From positions 5,317,342 to 5,381,341 of the forward strand of contig CP051237.1 in the NCBI GenBank assembly GCA_017794825.1: a stretch of DNA of 64,000 nucleotides. The letters run 5' to 3'. Below, piece by piece: positions 4,742 to 57,616 of the stretch. A model generated the notes under the pieces. That model ran no database searches, was not told the DNA's origin, and worked only from the letters and a program-made list of their open reading frames with translations. This stretch comes from Pararhizobium sp. GTDB lineage: Bacteria; Pseudomonadota; Alphaproteobacteria; Rhizobiales; Rhizobiaceae. A program made the position numbers and the translations under genes. Numbering within the stretch: position 1 is the first letter of the stretch; each line of letters opens with the position of its first letter.

Positions 4742-5851
4742 CTAGCCGAGTTCCTTGATCGCCTTATCCAGGGTGGCCGCTGCGGCGGCCACGTCGTGGC
4801 GTGCTCGCACATATGCGGCTGCAGCCCCGCCGAGCGAGCGTCGTAGCGACGGATCAGCCAGAAGACGGCGAAGCGCCGCCGCCATGTCCTGTTTGTCGAT
4901 GGCAAGCAAGCCGGTCTTTCCGTTGTCGACGACGGAGGGGACGCCGGCGTTGTCGAGCGCGACGACAGGCACGCCACGGGATTGAGCCTCGAGATAGACC
5001 ATGCCGATGGGTTCGCGAATTCCAGGCCAGAAAAAGACATCCGAGCGGTCCATCAGGCCGAACATCATGCCGTGTTCGACATTGCCGAGCAGTTTCAGCC
5101 GCTCGGGCGCGATGAACGAAAGCAGGTCCGCGATCGTGTCGCGCTCCGGGCCGTCGCCCGCAACAACCAGGTTCCAGCGGTCATGGCCGATCGCCTTCAG
5201 GGAAGCGGCGAGTGACTCGTAGCACTGCAGCTTCTTTCCTGGCCGCATCATTCCGGCGGTCATTAACATCGGATCGTCGTTTGCGAACAGGGGCGGGGCT
5301 TGGTGCGCGACATCGGGTTGAACGGACAGGTCGAGGAATGGAGCCAGCCTGCGCGCCGTTCGCATATCCGGCAAAAAGCTGTCCAGATAGGTCCAGTCGC
5401 TCTCCTTCAAAACGAAGTTGATCGCAGCAGCTTTCACCGCTGCCTGGGTCGCCAGTCTGCCATTTTCCCAGGCCTCGTCACTGTCCTGCGCAGTACGGGC
5501 GGCTTCCGCGGTCGCATAGGGAATGCCGAATTCTTTCGAAAGATGCGGTCCCAGCCAGTCCGGTGATTTGCAGTACGGATGATAGGTGAACCAGAGATCC
5601 GGCCGCAATCGCGGGTTTTGCATCCAGCGTTCGTGAATTCGCGCCTTTTCGGCCTCCACTTCGTCATGGCGTCTGGAATAAAGATCGGGGTCGGCGCGCT
5701 TCTGGTAGCTCTTGACCTCAGAAGCAAGCGACACGTCAAAGCCTGCCTTTGAAAGGGCGCGCATCAGCAGGCGCGCTATTTCCCGGTCGCCCGACGGATG
5801 TGGATCATTCGGAGATTTCAGCGGCGCGTAGAACGCTATCTTTCTGATCAT
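4742..5851 (-). CDS. Glycosyltransferase family 4 (GT-B fold, Glycos_transf_1 type)
   Basis: 369 aa. C-terminal E-x7-E-like region (GMVYLEAQSRGVPVVALDNAGVPSVVDNGKTGLL). ATGA overlap with the upstream gene at 5848-5851. Confidence 0.85.
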   Translation of the reverse strand: MIRKIAFYAPLKSPNDPHPSGDREIARLLMRALSKAGFDVSLASEVKSYQKRADPDLYSRRHDEVEAEKARIHERWMQNPRLRPDLWFTYHPYCKSPDWLGPHLSKEFGIPYATAEAARTAQDSDEAWENGRLATQAAVKAAAINFVLKESDWTYLDSFLPDMRTARRLAPFLDLSVQPDVAHQAPPLFANDDPMLMTAGMMRPGKKLQCYESLAASLKAIGHDRWNLVVAGDGPERDTIADLLSFIAPERLKLLGNVEHGMMFGLMDRSDVFFWPGIREPIGMVYLEAQSRGVPVVALDNAGVPSVVDNGKTGLLAIDKQDMAAALRRLLADPSLRRSLGGAAAAYVRARHDVAAAAATLDKAIKELG

Positions 5852-24018: not shown

Positions 24019-25959
24019 CTAATCCTCGAGCAATAACTTGCCTGCGCGGGTGTAGTCCGTCTGCGCCTTTTCCGCATCGCCAATCTTCTCGTAGGCCGCA
24101 GCACGGTTGAGGAGCGTCTGGTAGTCATCGGGCTCCAGCTCCAGGGCGCGGTTGTAGTCTTCGATCGCCAGGGCGAATTGCCGGATGTCGAAGTAGGCGT
24201 TGCCGCGATAGGTGTAGGCCAGTTGATAATCCGGCGCGAGCGCGATCGCCTGCGTGAGATCGCTGATTGCGTTCTGGTTGGATTTTTCGATCCGGTGGGA
24301 CCAGCCCCGCATGAAATAGACATGGGCGGTGTTTTCGCCGAGGGAAATGGCCTTGCTGAAGGTTTCCAGCGCCTCCGGCACGTTCTGGCTGTCGAACTGC
24401 ACAAGGCCGAGAATATAGTAGGCGCTTGCAACTTCCGGATCGAGTTCAAGCACCTTGTCGATATCCGTGCGAGCCCGGTCGTAATCGCCCGTATCGTGAT
24501 AGGCGCTGGCCCTTTCGAGGTAGGACTCGACGTAGTCATCCCTGACGGCAATCGCCGACGTGTAGTATTCGATGGCCTTGTCGTAACGCGCCTGGGCGGA
24601 AAGAACATTGCCCTGGGCCACGAGATAGTCAGGATCCTCCGGCTGCAATATGGCGCCCTTGGCGAAGTCCGCGAAGGCAAGCGCATAGCGGCCGGCGCGA
24701 TAGTGAATATAGCCACGGTTGAACATGGCGCTCGACAGGGCGGGATCGAGCCTGAGCGCCGTGTCGTAGTCATCGAGAGCGGATTCGTCATCGCCCAGTT
24801 CGGCGTGAATGAAGGCGCGCCGGAAGAAGTAACGGGAGTGTTCCTTATTGAGCGCGATGGCCTTGTTTATGTCTGCGAGCGCAGCGTCTGCGTTGCCTCT
24901 TTCGTCGAGCAGTTCCGCGCGGAAAAAGTAAGCCTCTTCGTAGTTTTCGTCGTGTTGGACGGTTCTGCCGAAGTGCTCGATCGCTCTCTCGATATCGCCG
25001 GCGTCCTTGTAGAGAAGGCCGCGATTGAAATAGGCGTTTGCGTATTCCGGGTCGATCCGGATGGCGGCATCGTAGTCCATGGCGGCCAGTTCCGGTAAAC
25101 CCGTGCGATCATAGGTGACGCCGCGATTGTTGTGATAGGAGGCGACGGGTTTCAGGCCAATGGCCCGATCATAGGCCGTAATGGCGAGACGGTACTCTTC
25201 GATTTCGCCATAGGCGTCGCCGAGTTTCGCAAGGCAGGAATGATTTTCCGGTTCCATGTCAATGGCTTGCTCGTATGATTTCACGGCTTCGTCGAAGCGT
25301 TCCATCGCGAACATCAGATCGGCGAAACTTTCCCTGTAGTAGGATACCTCCGGCTCGATCTCGGAGGCCTTTTTGAGGTCGATCATCGCCTGCGTGTCGT
25401 TTCCGAGTTCGTGATGCGCCCAGCCGCGACTGTCGTAGGCGGCGGCGAATTTCGGATAGAGACGTATGGCTTCGTTGTAGTCGGGGATGGCCTTGCTGTA
25501 GTCCGATGAGAAAAAACGGGCTTCTCCGCGCCGGAAATACACGTCGGCGTCATGCGGATCGACCGCTGCCGCCAGCGTGAAATCCGCTATCGCCTTCTGG
25601 TAATCTCCCAGGGAGTACTGCGCCAGGCCGCGATGGTACAGGGCGTAGAAATAGCGTTCATTGTCCTCGAGCGCCTTGTTGAAGTCTTCGATCGCCCGTT
25701 CATAGTGTTCGCGATCAAGGCGATATTTGCCGCGGCGGGCAAATTCGTAAGGAGTTTTCGGTTCGATCTGAAAGGCTTCGTCGCCACGCTCGCGCTCCAG
25801 GCGGTCGATCTCGCGGCTTGAAGGCGAATCCGCGAGCCAAACCCGGTTCTCCGCTTCGCTGCAATGCTCCTTCCCCAAACACGCCGCCGGGCCGGTCGCC
25901 TCGTCGAGAGGAGCACTGAAGACAAACACTGAAACAAAGCCGAGGACGAGAGGTGTCAT
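24019..25959 (-). CDS. Secreted tetratricopeptide (TPR) repeat protein
   Basis: 646 aa with a signal peptide, then more than 12 consecutive 34-aa TPR units (recurrent A..Y..AI.L.P....AY..RG). Confidence 0.9.
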   Translation of the reverse strand: MTPLVLGFVSVFVFSAPLDEATGPAACLGKEHCSEAENRVWLADSPSSREIDRLERERGDEAFQIEPKTPYEFARRGKYRLDREHYERAIEDFNKALEDNERYFYALYHRGLAQYSLGDYQKAIADFTLAAAVDPHDADVYFRRGEARFFSSDYSKAIPDYNEAIRLYPKFAAAYDSRGWAHHELGNDTQAMIDLKKASEIEPEVSYYRESFADLMFAMERFDEAVKSYEQAIDMEPENHSCLAKLGDAYGEIEEYRLAITAYDRAIGLKPVASYHNNRGVTYDRTGLPELAAMDYDAAIRIDPEYANAYFNRGLLYKDAGDIERAIEHFGRTVQHDENYEEAYFFRAELLDERGNADAALADINKAIALNKEHSRYFFRRAFIHAELGDDESALDDYDTALRLDPALSSAMFNRGYIHYRAGRYALAFADFAKGAILQPEDPDYLVAQGNVLSAQARYDKAIEYYTSAIAVRDDYVESYLERASAYHDTGDYDRARTDIDKVLELDPEVASAYYILGLVQFDSQNVPEALETFSKAISLGENTAHVYFMRGWSHRIEKSNQNAISDLTQAIALAPDYQLAYTYRGNAYFDIRQFALAIEDYNRALELEPDDYQTLLNRAAAYEKIGDAEKAQTDYTRAGKLLLED

Positions 25960-41965: not shown

Positions 41966-42679
41966 CTAATTGTAGGTGCGGATGAGCCCGACGAGCTTGC
42001 CCTGGATCTTGACTTGGTCCGGTCCGAAGATCCGCGTCTCGTAGGCGGGGTTGGCGGCTTCCAGCGCAATGGACGCGCCCTTGCGGCGAAAACGCTTCAG
42101 CGTGGCTTCCTCGTCGTCGACGAGGGCGACGACGATTTCTCCGGGATTGGCCGTCGACGCGTTCTTGATCACCACCGTGTCGCCGTCAAAGATGCCGGCC
42201 TCAATCATCGAGTCGCCCTTGACCTCAAGCGCGTAGTGCTCACCATTGCCGAGCATTTCCGGCGGAACGTTGATATTGTGGGTATTGTTCTGGATGGCGG
42301 ATATCGGCACGCCGGCTGCGATACGGCCCATGACCGGCACGCTGACGGAAGAATTCGCTGCTTCCTTAGGCGCTTCCCGCACCGGTTTCGGCTGCGTCTT
42401 GCCGAGACTGCCTTCGATAACGCTCGGAGAGAAGCCCTTGCGCGGATGCAAACCCTGCGCCGCCATCTCCGGAAGCCTGATGACTTCCAGGGCTCTGGCG
42501 CGGTTCGGCAGGCGGCGAATGAAGCCGCGTTCCTCGAGCGCCGTAATCAAGCGATGAATGCCTGATTTGGACGCGAGATCGAGCGCGTCTTTCATCTCGT
42601 CAAATGACGGCGGTATTCCGGATTCCTTCATCCGTTCGTGAATGAACAGAAGCAGTTCGTGCTGCTTGCGCGTTAACAT
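41966..42679 (-). CDS. lexA: LexA repressor
   Basis: [29 protein letters not shown] wHTH, a long alphaproteobacterial linker, and a C-terminal S24 peptidase ([11 protein letters not shown]...[13 protein letters not shown]). Confidence 0.93.
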
Positions 42680-42726
42680 GCCCAATCCTCCGAATCGGCG
42701 AAACAAATACAGAACATACACTATAT

Positions 42727-42741
42727 GTTCCAGTTGTGTTC
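42727..42741. promoter_or_regulatory. Alphaproteobacterial SOS box (LexA operator)
   Basis: Perfect GTTC-CAGTTGT-GTTC (GAAC-N7-GAAC on the gene strand), 48-62 nt upstream of the lexA ATG. A second imperfect copy, AAAC-N7-GAAC, lies at 42701-42715. Confidence 0.8.
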
Positions 42742-53873: not shown

Positions 53874-54644
53874 ATGGGCAGGTGTGATATTCTATCCAAA
53901 GCATTGAAATTCATCATCTACGCTGTGGCAACGGTATTTTGTCTTATCGCGGCTTACATCGCGGCTGCGGCAATCGGAACCGTATGGCGGACGGCGCCGA
54001 CGGAAACGCTCAACGAACAGACGACGACGGCCTATGTGCTTTCCAACGGTTTCCACAGCGATATCGTTCTGCCTCTCAAAGGAGGAACGCTTCCGGTCGG
54101 CTTTCCGGAATTGCAACAGGATCTCGATGTGTCCCTCGCAAATAAGGATTATCTGATCGTTGGGTGGGGTTCGCAAACCGCCTACACCAGTCTTTTGGAA
54201 TTGTCTGATCTGACCGCCGGAATAATCGCAAAGGCGTTGTTCTTCGATCGTTCGGTTCTTCACATCCAGCCCTATTCCGGGTCATTGCAGGGACCCGGAG
54301 TCTATCGTCTGGAGCTTGACAGCGCGCAGTTCGATCAGCTTTGGAGCTTTGTCGGCCAGACATTTGTTGTCGACAGCAACGCGGCTCCGATGCTCATACC
54401 GGACGTCACGCACGGTTATGGGGACGTGTTCTATCGGGCGGAGCCTCGATTCAGCCTTTTCTACGGATGCAACGCCTGGGTCGGAGAGGCGTTGCGTAGC
54501 GCGGGGATATCATTCGGACGCTGGACGCCTTTCGCACAATCCATCGAATGGAATATGGAACGTCTGCAGCAAAATTCCGTGGCGGGGCCGGCGATTGACG
54601 TCGATCCTGCTTCAACAGAGATGCAGGCGACAAAGAACGAATAG
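53874..54644 (+). CDS. DUF2459 / TIGR02117-like membrane-anchored hypothetical protein
   Basis: 256 aa with an N-terminal TM. Motifs NGFHSDIVLP, VGWGSQTAY and FYGCNAWVGEALRSAGI. The family assignment is from memory. Confidence 0.65.
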   Translation: MGRCDILSKALKFIIYAVATVFCLIAAYIAAAAIGTVWRTAPTETLNEQTTTAYVLSNGFHSDIVLPLKGGTLPVGFPELQQDLDVSLANKDYLIVGWGSQTAYTSLLELSDLTAGIIAKALFFDRSVLHIQPYSGSLQGPGVYRLELDSAQFDQLWSFVGQTFVVDSNAAPMLIPDVTHGYGDVFYRAEPRFSLFYGCNAWVGEALRSAGISFGRWTPFAQSIEWNMERLQQNSVAGPAIDVDPASTEMQATKNE

Positions 54645-54675
54645 GGAACAAATTGATGCATCGCCGGCAGTTTTG

Positions 54676-54684
54676 TGTTATAGT
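54676..54684 (+). promoter_or_regulatory. Extended -10-like element (TGTTATAGT) pointing into the repeat array
   Basis: TG-N-TATAGT lies 32 nt after the DUF2459 stop codon. No good -35 element. Tentative. Confidence 0.25.
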
Positions 54685-54721
54685 GCCGCCGTTTCTACAT
54701 CCTGTGAAACGATCGTTCTTT

Positions 54722-55043
54722 TGGAGAAATCGTACGATTTTGCGAATTCCCGAAACAAAGCCAAACGCGCTCGGCGCAAGCAAATTTAGAACCCCGAGAG
54801 CACGGAAATTGCAAAATCCCGAAACAAAGCCAGTGAGGTCAGTACCCCGAAAAGAGTGAATTCCCGAAACGAAGCCAGACGGTTTTTGACAATTGCACGG
54901 TCGGAAATCTCGGAATCCCGAAACAAAGCCAACAGGGTCACAAGACCCGAAAATCGTGATTTCCCGAAACAAAGCCAGATTATGTATTCAGGTTCGCCAG
55001 GCGCTGGAAATCGGAGATCTACAGAATCCCGAAACAAAGCCAG
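54722..55043 (+). repeat. Array of six direct repeats with invariant 16-nt core CCCGAAACAAAGCCA(G/A) and degenerate hairpin-like 5' arms
   Basis: Cores start at 54749, 54818, 54863 (one A>G change), 54917, 54963 and 55028, giving spacings of 69/45/54/46/65 bp. Each core is preceded by (C/G)GAAA(A)T(C)-N2-8-GA(A/T)T(T/C). Unit 1 contains the perfect palindrome AAATCGTACGATTT (54727-54740). Confidence 0.9.
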
Positions 55044-55094
55044 ATTTTAAAAAGAAAATAAAAACAATAGCATAAGTAATTTCAAAACTTGTCT

Positions 55095-56330
55095 TCAGGG
55101 ATGAATAACAGCGGAATCCTGCCTCAGAAGGATGACCCGACAGGGGTCGCCTTTCTTTGCCGGTTCGGCGAATGGCGCGCGGATCGTCAGGCAGTCGGAT
55201 TGCGCGAAGACACGCGTCATGGAGGAATCCTGCCGTTCGAAAGGCAGGGCGATCAGGTCTCCGTCTGGCCCGCGTTCGATCTTTGAGCGCAGATAGTCCT
55301 CGCGTCGGTCATTGGCTGGAAGATCCTTTCCAAGAACGGCGGTCCGTTCCAGATCCGGCGAAGCCTGTCCGCGAAGGCGCGCTATCAGCGGGCGCAGGAA
55401 AAGATGCGAGCAGACGATGCTTGAAACCGGGTTTCCGGGAAACCCCAGCACGTGCAGGTGTTCGAGGCGGCCATACATCAACGGTTTGCCGGGACGCATG
55501 GCGATTTGCCAGAAATCAAGTTCCATGCCCCGCGCGACGAGCGTCTCCTGAACGAGATCGTGATCGCCGACGGAGGCTCCGCCAAGCGTCACCAGTATAT
55601 CCGCGCTGCCCTGCAAGGTCCTGTCGATTGCGTCTTCGATGGATGCGCGCGTATCCACGGCGATGCCGAGATCCAGGGCAGTCGCTCCGTCGGCTTGCGC
55701 AATCGCCGCCACGCCGTAGCCGTTCGAGGCGATGATCTGGTCGTCCTTCGGATCGGATCCCGGCGGAACCAGTTCGTCGCCGGTCGCCAATATCGCGACA
55801 TGGGGTCGCCGCCTCACAGGCACGGTTGGATAGTTCATCGAAGCGGCGACCGTGAGGCGTCCAGCGTCCAGTATGTCGCCGCTCTGAAGCACCACGTCGC
55901 CGGCGGCGAAGTCGAGACCTACCGGACGCACATAGACGCCTTTCCCGGCGCCCTGGTTGATCCGAACGCGATTGGATCCAAGCGTTTCGGTGTTTTCCTG
56001 AATGACGATCGTGTCGGCGCCGTCCGGCAAAGGCGCGCCGGTGAAGATGCGCACCGTTTCTCCCGCAGCGACGGCGCCTTCAAAACGGTGGCCGGCAGGC
56101 GCCTGACCGATGACGGACAATTCGACGGGCGTGGATTCGACGTCGGCGGCGCGTACGGCGTAGCCGTCCATGGCCGACGCCGAGAAGGGCGGTTGCGAGC
56201 GTCGCGCGACCAGGTCTTCGGCCAATACCCTTCCGGCCGCGTCAGCGAGCCCGACGCTTTCGCGCTCGTCAATGGTTTCGGCATTGGCGAGAATGCGGTT
56301 GCGGGCGTCCTCGACGGAAACGAGGCTCAT
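55095..56330 (-). CDS. moeA: Molybdopterin molybdotransferase
   Basis: ATG 56330 is in an ATGA overlap with the moaC stop. [14 protein letters not shown]...[14 protein letters not shown] is the MoeA signature. The track ORF extension to 56930 is a shadow across moaC. Confidence 0.9.
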
Positions 56331-56815
56331 GGGTGACGCCGCCAGGCGCCGGACTTTCCGCCGGTTTTCGATACGAGCCTGATGGAGCCGATTTCCATAC
56401 CCCGGTCGACAGCTTTCGCCATGTCGTAAATGGTCAGGCAGGCCACCGAGACGGCCGTCAGCGCCTCCATTTCCACGCCGGTCTTTCCCGTCAGCTTGAC
56501 GGTCGCTTTGACATGAAGGCCGGGCAGGGCGTCGTCCTCGGAAATATCGACGGTCACCTTGCTCAGCATGAGCGGATGGCAAAGCGGGATTAGAGTCGAC
56601 GTCTGTTTGGCCGCCATGATGCCGGCCAGGCGCGCTGTGCCGATCACATCGCCCTTCCTGGCGTCGCCATCGCGGATGAGCGCCAGGGTTTCCGGCGCCA
56701 TGGTCACATGACCTTCGGCGACGGCTATGCGCTCGGTTTCCGCCTTGTCGCCGACATCCACCATATGCGCCTCGCCGGATGCGCCGATATGGGTGAGTTT
56801 GTCCGGCCCTGCCAT
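56327..56815 (-). CDS. moaC: Cyclic pyranopterin monophosphate synthase
   Basis: 162 aa. [18 protein letters not shown]...LIPLCHPL...[13 protein letters not shown]. Confidence 0.93.
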
Positions 56816-56818
56816 CGC

Positions 56819-57616
56819 TCAGACGGTTTCCGCGAGCAAGTCGCGCGTCGCCGCTGCGACGTCGGCCTTGCGCATCAGGCTTTCGCCGACGAGGAAGGAG
56901 TGAATTCCGACATTGGCGAGCCGTTGACAATCGTCATGGGTGAAGATCCCGCTTTCGCCCACGAGAAGCCGGTCATCGGGCGCCATTGCGGCCAGCTTTT
57001 CGCTCGTCTCCAGACTGGTTTCGAAGGTCCGCAAGTTCCTGTTGTTGATCCCGAGAAGCTTCGAACTCAGGGCAAGAGCGCGCTCCATTTCGGCTTCGTC
57101 ATGGACTTCGATGAGGCTGTCCATCCCAAGTTCGGCGGCCGTGTCTTCCAGGAGACGCGCTTCGTCGTCGCTGACTGACGCCATGATGATGAGGATCGCG
57201 TCGGCGCCCCATACACGGGCCTCGTAGACCTGGTAGGGTTCGAACATGAAGTCTTTGCGCAGGGCGGGCAGGGATGTCACATTTCTCGCCTGGCTCAGAA
57301 ACTCCGGCGCTCCCTGAAACGACGGCGTATCGGTAAGGACCGAAAGGCAGGACGCGCCGCCGGTCTCGTAAGCGCGCGCGAGCGCCGGCGGGTCGAAGTC
57401 TTCCCGGATAAGTCCTTTCGAGGGGCTGGCCTTCTTGATTTCCGCGATCAGCCCGAAACCGCCGCGGGCCTGTTTTTCCGCGAGGGCCCTGTGAAAGCCG
57501 CGCGGCGCGTCACAATCGGCAAGCATCGCCTTCAATTCTGAAAACGGCCTGGAGACTTTCGCCGCGGCGATTTCCTGGCGTTTGTATTCTTCGATCTTTT
57601 TAAGGATGTCCGCCAT
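56819..57616 (-). CDS. trpC: Indole-3-glycerol phosphate synthase
   Basis: 265 aa. [13 protein letters not shown]...[13 protein letters not shown]...LRKDF...GINNRNL. Confidence 0.93.

Follow-up and report, generated by a model that had tools for sequence, protein, structure and literature searches.

A candidate LexA-controlled array of non-coding direct repeats between a DUF2459 gene and moeA in Pararhizobium sp., and its relatives in other Alphaproteobacteria

Reiterated short motifs outside genes are found in regulatory small RNAs (sRNAs), in replication origins and centromeres, and in dispersed extragenic repeats. Here we describe an array of this kind in Pararhizobium sp. (contig CP051237.1, positions 5,317,342 to 5,381,341; this stretch of 64,000 nucleotides is called the window), placed in the 450 bp that separate a DUF2459 gene from moeA. 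The array carries six copies of TCCCGAAAC(A/G)AAGCCA on the + strand behind an SOS (LexA) operator and a promoter-like head, belongs to a family of similar arrays, and shares its repeated unit with the 3′ end of a protein-coding gene, here named X, which in many genomes follows a second gene, Y. Tentatively, and with less than even confidence, we favour reading 54635-55094 as a non-coding transcription unit under LexA repression, whose repeated recognition motifs are probably presented to X/Y.

Sponge sRNAs (CsrB/RsmZ with CsrA; CrcZ with Hfq/Crc) resemble the array in being stand-alone non-coding loci with their own regulated promoter and several copies of one short motif, in their variable copy number and spacers, and in forming multiple paralogous loci per genome. 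As to the mark of a sponge, namely its own promoter and several motifs per transcript, a promoter-like head and 1-7 motifs were seen in the sequence. The array differs in that its motif, CCCGAAACAAAGCC, is neither GGA in loops nor AAnAAnAA, extends over 19-31 nt and does not lie in hairpin loops, and in having LexA-operator control, an ~11-nt spacing register, no evident intrinsic terminator and no Rfam match. Iteron origins and direct-repeat centromeres (lambda ori, R1 parC) likewise show direct repeats of ~19-22 bp in helical register, an adjoining AT-rich tract and a promoter that reads towards or through the repeats. Helical register was also found in the direct repeats of the arrays, the exception being the 19-bp tandem copies of one locus (L088; retrieved loci are given as L numbers). 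Unlike these systems, the arrays occupy many loci per chromosome at conserved housekeeping positions, have no adjoining Rep, ParR or ParB gene, and are spaced by 3-11 helical turns rather than uniformly, and X matches no Rep/Par family. The array has traits in common with both sponge sRNAs and iteron arrays and belongs to neither.

Repetitive extragenic palindromic (REP) sequences and bacterial interspersed mosaic elements (BIMEs) of enterobacteria and pseudomonads are, like the arrays, dispersed, extragenic and clustered, lie mostly at gene 3′ ends or between convergent genes, and vary in copy number between orthologous sites. A REP/BIME-like cluster was one of four options offered in the original prediction, made by a model from the sequence of the window; the genomic ecology (dispersed, extragenic, mostly convergent) agrees with it, but the units are non-palindromic, all in direct orientation and never alternating. 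The arrays also have a promoter and an operator, number tens rather than hundreds of copies among the matches listed, and are tied to one particular gene at its 3′ end. Type III toxin-antitoxin loci (ToxI) similarly place short direct repeats of ~35 nt under one promoter and tie them to one protein gene. ToxI repeats, however, precede that gene, whereas the array repeats follow a gene or stand alone, are neither identical nor contiguous, and in the window have no downstream same-strand gene; nor is X a ToxN-like nuclease by any search. Clustered regularly interspaced short palindromic repeats (CRISPR) differ as well, since the gaps between array cores range over ~5-106 nt (core spacings 18-120) and no cas genes lie in the flanks. 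Covariance models of Rfam 15 gave no match in the gap at E up to 10 and none at the arrays of 12 family loci. By its defining features the array is thus no REP/BIME (palindrome, alternating orientation), no CRISPR, no type III toxin-antitoxin locus and no member of any Rfam family. A plasmid origin was rejected, there being no PLSDB match.

To our knowledge, the known members of the alphaproteobacterial LexA regulon are protein-coding. The array operator is identical to the consensus and to the operator of lexA in the window, and a GAAC-N7-GAAC operator at a promoter, the sequence criterion for the regulon, is present at the array; in contrast to the regulon, this operator fronts non-coding repeats and lies upstream of the -35 element. 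The alphaproteobacterial SOS box is given as GTTCN7GTTC in two papers (PMC9578287; PMC6237742, citing da Rocha 2008 and Erill 2004), and in a Caulobacter study no SOS box was seen near the sRNAs induced by mitomycin (PMC6237742). Within the literature searched, we found neither the motif string nor a description of LexA-box-headed non-coding loci in Alphaproteobacteria. For the SOS field, the arrays form a family of operator-headed non-coding repeat loci predicted from sequence alone.

The six cores in the gap (coordinates in Table 1) have the same orientation and a sole substitution, A>G, in the copy at 54863. At two mismatches or fewer, seven core matches were counted in the window, where 0.59 would be expected, and none of 100 shuffles reached seven; the seventh, at 25928, carries two mismatches, has neither a head nor neighbours, and is a chance match. 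A search with nhmmer and a unit profile found no extra unit copy elsewhere in the window, in agreement with the original prediction, which had also described the six copies and their single substitution correctly. Tandem Repeats Finder reported nothing on the gap. The absence of a credible open reading frame (ORF) held up as well, the gap ORFs being short and traversing the units in differing frames. A coding repeat was rejected, since units occur in each of the three frames, tandem 19-nt copies cannot encode a protein and the gap ORFs are short. The left flanking gene encodes a DUF2459 protein (Pfam, 4e-36) and the right one MoeA (three Pfam domains). Two smaller features named earlier, the 14-bp palindrome AAATCGTACGATTT at 54727-54740, which overlaps the leader, and the -10-like TGTTATAGT at 54676-54684, were both found in place.

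The head of the array was not part of the original prediction beyond this -10-like element. In the window, the operator ends 5 nt before the -35-like hexamer. Heads across the family follow one order: GAAC-N7-GAAC, nnTGCA 8-9 nt on, and TGnTATA ~17 nt further. The box stands at this fixed position in 15 of ~20 arrays (11 exact, 4 with one mismatch); given the background frequency of the box in these loci, the binomial P is ~1e-21 to 1e-25. Taken over the family, the operator heads ~70% of arrays. The -10-like element, too, is conserved, and its distance from the operator is fixed: in most arrays, TGnTATnn lies 41-42 nt from the box start and 63-85 nt ahead of the first core. The leaders are unrelated in sequence between arrays and cluster at lengths of ~63, 73 and 85 nt. 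A head profile search of ~1 Mb of sequence matched array heads and X heads only. The box-less arrays L045 and L046 have promoter-like -35/-10 elements at the same place (TTGATC-N16-TATAAT in L045). Readings of the head as a sigma-54 or EcfG promoter were rejected by hand because the spacings do not fit.

Exact GAAC-N7-GAAC occurs three times in the window: at the lexA promoter, at the array head and within the DUF2459 gene. This third box, GAACGATCGAAGAAC (54239-54253, minus strand), lies in the coding region ~400 bp upstream of the array head and is probably due to chance, 2.45 matches being expected per window. The LexA protein encoded in the window is 99% identical to the annotated LexA of Hoeflea sp. 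CAU 1731, and the lexA promoter and leader are nearly identical in that strain, in Hoeflea sp. TYP-13, in a Sinorhizobium and in an alphaproteobacterial metagenome-assembled genome (MAG); we presume that this LexA is the trans-acting repressor of the array promoter. CTTGCA is the -35-like hexamer both at lexA and at X loci. The repeated unit itself recalls an operator: GAAACAAAGCCAGATT is identical at 12/16 positions to GAAACAAATACAGAAC, the reverse complement of the second lexA operator (window 42701-42716), and apart from one extra A it comes close to the L042 head box GAACAAAGACAGAAC. A LexA operator may be what the unit derives from or mimics.

Relatives of the array were sought by an exact 16-mer scan of one genome per species, in which the figures refer to the matches listed and are lower bounds. 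Among these matches, many copies, mostly in same-strand clusters, were found in Hoeflea sp. CAU 1731, Flavimaribacter sediminis WL0058 and the Rhizobiaceae MAG OZ245773, and beyond these three genomes there were scattered single copies only. Among the loci retrieved are at least 22 arrays with 2-7 units each, besides loci with a single unit, and there are at least 8-10 extragenic, dispersed array loci per chromosome. In every array all units share one strand, and their orientation is constant relative to the head across arrays and relative to X across X loci. Most resolved arrays sit between convergent housekeeping genes and one between divergent genes; the flanking pairs are EamA/ArgB, an ORF with no Pfam match/MFS, FolC/TrxA, PBP/PMM and DUF2459/MoeA. 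A logo of 81 copies defined a ~31-nt non-palindromic block, (G)AAAA-n-n-g-C-g-R-ATT-CCCGAAAC-R-AAGCC-AGAtt, with no self-complementary halves and with two common polymorphisms, both A/G. The segment ahead of the core had been described as a degenerate hairpin arm, which the family does not bear out: it is a conserved non-palindromic block, (G)AAAA-n-n-g-C-g-R-A-T-T, and folding against shuffles gave mean z = -0.43 for the arms and -0.09 for whole units, i.e. no excess structure. The whole gap, too, folded no better than shuffles on either strand. GGA triplets, to which attention had been drawn in several arms, are not a family feature.

Conservation was assessed at L096, the moeA-downstream ortholog of the array, where moeA is ~92% identical, three cores are 100% identical and the spacers ~45-55%; the window has six units against three in L096, i.e. 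three extra. The cores are invariant while the spacers diverge faster than moeA, which supports the selection on the core that had been proposed. The DUF2459 protein of the window is 87% identical to an F. sediminis protein; at DUF2459 homologs with ~59% identity synteny is lost and the gaps of 38-63 nt carry no array, and the approach to orthologous loci through DUF2459 homologs was dropped for this reason. In L088 (6696-6801), the bare 19-nt unit AGATTCCCGAAACGAAGCC occurs in five head-to-tail copies plus a partial one, without arms and without an SOS box, which looks like a recent slippage expansion. This locus and the differing copy number between orthologs (6 vs 3 units) are what would be expected if the arrays were a selfish or neutral repeat, that is, functionless, decayed, X-less copies of a mobile X cassette in permissive convergent regions. 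In other taxa X indeed lies in island-like contexts, beside IS110 transposases and a tRNA gene, and L111 and L112 have a breakpoint 41 nt past the unit. We nevertheless consider a functionless relic very improbable, given that cores, operator and -10 element have been preserved, whereas leaders, spacers and tails are no longer recognisably alike, that spacer length is constrained, and that orthologous array sites occur in three genomes assigned to different genera.

The link to X, which the original prediction also missed, was seen at L077 (a MAG), where the head is followed by the ~190-aa ORF X (family ~185 aa), two units and an AT tail. By tblastn, the single 16-mer matches in L089 (Aestuariivita), L040 (Maritimibacter), L083 and L108 proved to be 3′ ends of X homologs. 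The unit stands there after the X stop or in differing reading frames, indicating a nucleotide-level element. Five independent X loci collected through protein similarity (L112 type, L123, L124, L125 and L127) all carry the unit ~15-45 nt past the X stop (5/5). Synteny of the X locus holds throughout the clade that bears arrays, where the order is head (CTTGCA-N17-CTATGA), X, two units and AT tail; outside that clade, X is the second gene after the overlapping ORF Y. Exact SOS boxes lie upstream of Y in Rhodobacterales L089 and metagenomic L124, and SOS boxes are less clearly placed in L040 and L083. X is widespread, common in marine Rhodobacterales and Hyphomicrobiales, and present on the window's own chromosome outside the window (P0049). 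In its AlphaFold model (pLDDT 86), short helices at the N terminus are combined with a long coiled-coil hairpin. PADLOC returned no match for Y. The arrays thus offer a handle on an unannotated SOS-linked operon, Y-X, whose conserved 3′ nucleotide element is now defined. An IS110 transposase as partner of X was rejected, being present only in the L111/L112 type, as was a phage origin of X, since IMG/VR gave no more than one partial match. Past the unit of L123, L124, L125 and L127, a small hairpin follows after 8-25 nt with the compensatory changes CAAC/GTTG, CAGC/GTTG and CAATC/GATTG; possibly this hairpin belongs to the 3′ end of the X mRNA.

According to the favoured reading, the SOS operator directly upstream of a weak -35 and a good -10 element would control a transcript that starts near 54691 and comprises a ~55-nt leader, six ~31-nt non-palindromic units and an AT-rich end zone. 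DNA damage would lead to LexA cleavage and thereby to firing of the array promoter, and the locus would then offer a motif-specific partner six ordered copies of (ATT)CCCGAAACAAAGCC(AGATT), set in A/C-rich sequence with little structure. The simplest guess is that X/Y supplies this partner, or else that a factor acting on the mRNA of X does, because the motif always lies past the stop of SOS-linked X and the X locus of the clade has the same head, two units and tail. The X-less arrays would serve as multi-site decoys or scaffolds switched on with X, following a CsrB/CrcZ-type sponge logic. The conserved operator and promoter, the fixed unit orientation and the position of the unit directly 3′ of X suggest that the units are meant for transcription under SOS control, and the sense strand, which is unstructured and rich in A and C (A 37%, C 27%, G 22%, T 15%), fits a single-stranded ligand-binding RNA. 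The repeats with their conservation, the geometry of operator and promoter, the family with its contexts, the link between X and the unit and the ~11-nt register are seen directly in the sequences; from these patterns we infer LexA binding and promoter firing at the array, RNA as the functional form, and X/Y as the partner. Of the four options in the original prediction, a non-coding RNA with reiterated motifs fits the promoter and the constant promoter-to-unit orientation, and an iteron-like array fits the ~11-bp register and the AT-rich flank; as a whole, that interpretation is partly supported, its omissions being the LexA operator and the link to X.

Several observations weigh against the favoured reading. 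The window promoter was not called in a simple scan for the sigma-70 consensus. The array operator covers ~-56 to -42, upstream of -35, whereas that of lexA lies between -35 and -10, so that the geometry of repression would be non-classical. A canonical intrinsic terminator is missing from the array strand after 19/24 arrays, and a conserved unit of 31 nt is long for a protein-binding motif of an sRNA. X gave no match in Pfam, PHROG, NCBIfam, PADLOC or a PDB sequence search, and hence no hint of nucleic-acid binding, and Foldseek with the X model found no significant match. Finally, three features argue for reading on a DNA duplex: the register of 11 nt, a unit about as long as those of iterons, and the flanking AT-rich tract. 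An ~11-nt core register with ~10-nt leader steps appears more natural as helical phasing of a duplex than in a flexible RNA.

The register emerged from the distances between cores. The window spacings are 69, 45, 54, 46 and 65, as originally measured, although the multiples of 3 noted among them are not a family feature. Across the family, distances of 19, 32-36, 43-46, 52-57, 64-69, 78, 112 and 120 were observed, and none of 37-42, 47-51 or 58-63 occurred in family arrays; the clusters centre on about 34, 45, 56, 66, 78, 112 and 120. With orthologous duplicates removed, the best period was 10.75-11.0 (Rayleigh R = 0.67, n = 38, 0/5000 random sets). Distances from the operator to the first core cluster as well, at 105-106, 114-116 and 126. 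As the spacer sequences are unrelated and their lengths regular, length is what is kept. The main rival explanation builds on this regularity and sees a phased array of duplex-DNA sites, iteron- or centromere-like, with 19-31-bp units bound on one helix face, possibly by X/Y; the AT-rich flank would be an unwinding or bending zone, and the SOS promoter would license or clear the array, the RNA not being the functional product. The clustering of core distances at ~11-bp multiples despite unrelated spacers, the clustered box-to-first-core distances, a unit length typical of iterons beside an AT-rich tract and the resemblance of the unit to an SOS operator (12/16 to the second lexA operator) all speak for it. 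A DNA site, however, needs neither a conserved promoter nor a strict promoter-to-unit orientation, and at least 8-10 loci per chromosome at stable orthologous housekeeping positions are unlike origins or plasmid centromeres. Furthermore, the tandem 19-bp copies of L088 are out of the 11-bp phase, no Rep- or ParB-like gene adjoins, and X is not recognisably DNA-binding. On balance we regard phased DNA sites as unlikely, though as an explanation to be taken seriously. Distinctly unlikely is a combined version in which X/Y and the unit form an SOS-licensed nucleoprotein system: once LexA is cleaved, X/Y would assemble on phased duplex arrays, each beside an AT-rich tract, and these arrays, ten or more at fixed places in the chromosome, would be landing pads inducible by damage, with an origin-like role or a role in fork handling or chromosome organisation; the X-less arrays of Flavimaribacter and Hoeflea would be an expansion of a single X-linked site. 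The strict 11-nt register together with the conserved promoter makes the array a clean test case of RNA versus DNA.

In most arrays, a tract of 35-60 nt with 50-84% A+T follows the last unit, in genomes of ~59% G+C; a comparison of the tails revealed no shared motif. An intrinsic terminator as the array end was rejected because it is absent in most arrays. In the window, a terminator-like hairpin and T-run occurs 91 nt past the last core, antisense to the final moeA codons; it is kept in L096, as expected of moeA coding sequence, and is no more than a candidate for the end of the array transcript. These features bear on a minor rival in which the arrays are Rho-loading (Rho utilisation, rut-like) sites: unstructured C-over-G RNA would load Rho, polymerase would be released in the AT-rich tail, and the function would be to insulate convergent genes or to titrate Rho in the SOS response. 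Regular C spacing is a property of rut sites, and the ~11-nt register of the arrays is close to it. In keeping with this, C exceeds G (27% vs 22%) in an A-rich strand without excess structure, UCCC and GCC lie 12 nt apart in each core, most arrays have an AT-rich zone without an intrinsic terminator, and most resolved arrays lie between convergent genes. Yet a rut site requires composition, not an invariant sequence of 14-19 nt kept across alphaproteobacterial orders; the lone unit past X is too short for one, and the quantised leader length is left unexplained. We therefore think Rho loading very unlikely.

A second minor rival holds that the arrays encode base-pairing ‘sibling’ sRNAs, with the core as the seed for target mRNAs and the unit past X as a 3′-UTR-derived (untranslated region) version of it. 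The invariant single-stranded core beside the small covarying hairpin downstream of X would suit such pairing, the two common A/G polymorphisms are compatible with G-U wobble, and nine contiguous nucleotides are complementary to the lexA leader just upstream of the Shine-Dalgarno sequence. This complementarity, however, coincides with the conserved second operator, which also occurs in Sinorhizobium, a case in which no array was looked for or seen, and the comparison with lexA mRNA as a specific pairing target was uninformative for this reason. No other site complementary to the core was found in the window, the 31-nt conserved block is far longer than a usual seed, and the 11-nt register finds no explanation. 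Seed pairing thus seems to us a poor prospect, and the functionless relic considered above is the third of the minor rivals.

Table 1. Features of the array, of its flanking genes and of lexA (window coordinates)
Feature	Position	Strand	Remarks
SOS (LexA) operator GAACGAATAGGGAAC	54635..54649	+	exact GAAC-N7-GAAC; overlaps the DUF2459 stop codon
-35-like hexamer GATGCA	54655..54660	+	family consensus nnTGCA; conserved column of the head alignment; 17 nt to the -10-like element
TG-extended -10-like element TGTGTTATAGT, hexamer TTATAG/TATAGT	54674..54684	+	conserved in family heads
Leader, promoter to unit 1	54685..54734	+	sequence varies between loci; holds the start of the palindrome 54727-54740
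Unit 1	54735..54767	+	core 54749-54762
Unit 2	54804..54836	+	core 54818-54831
Unit 3	54849..54881	+	core 54863-54876; A>G variant, common in the family
Unit 4	54903..54935	+	core 54917-54930; aligns with unit 1 of ortholog L096
Unit 5	54949..54981	+	core 54963-54976
Unit 6	55014..55046	+	core 55028-55041
AT-rich tail	55047..55094	.	~80% A+T vs 59% G+C of the window
Candidate intrinsic terminator, hairpin then CCTTTCTTT	55133..55149	+	inside the moeA 3′ end
DUF2459/TIGR02117-family gene	53874..54644	+	upstream gene, context
moeA	55095..56330	-	convergent, context; listed 611-aa ORF over-extended at its 5′ end
lexA and promoter	41966..42741	-	ATG at 42679; CTTGCA-GAACACAACTGGAAC-A-TATAGT; second imperfect operator GTTCTGTATTTGTTTC

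In the 611-aa moeA ORF (55095-56930, minus strand), the MoeA domains occupy the last ~411 residues only, and the upstream portion overlaps a MoaC-like ORF at 56327-56815. Outside the Alphaproteobacteria, three separate exact 16-mer matches were recorded in the Planctomycetaceae MAG OY970189 (L012, L056 and L059), with weak periodic partial matches ~80-130 nt apart around the 16-mer in L012 and L056; they probably represent a different repeat, possibly a coding one.

Some further observations concern X loci. In X loci of the Rhodobacterales type (L111/L112 at 5553-5617, L040, L089 and L127), a second conserved motif, ATGCC(C/T)GATAA(C/T)GC, lies downstream of the unit. L111 equals L112 to just past this second motif and is unrelated beyond it, and a tRNA gene comes next in L112, pointing to a mobile island that ends here. 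A widespread, unannotated N-terminal module, corresponding to the first ~40 residues of X (RNRANAxKSTGPRTxxGKxxxxxNARRHG), recurs on many otherwise unrelated proteins from soil and sediment metagenomes (L132-L202). In F. sediminis, a second head (SOS box and promoter; L119, 3426-3851) precedes a truncated X paralog of 126 aa, which is followed by two more unannotated genes and lies 2.4 kb upstream of the full X locus.

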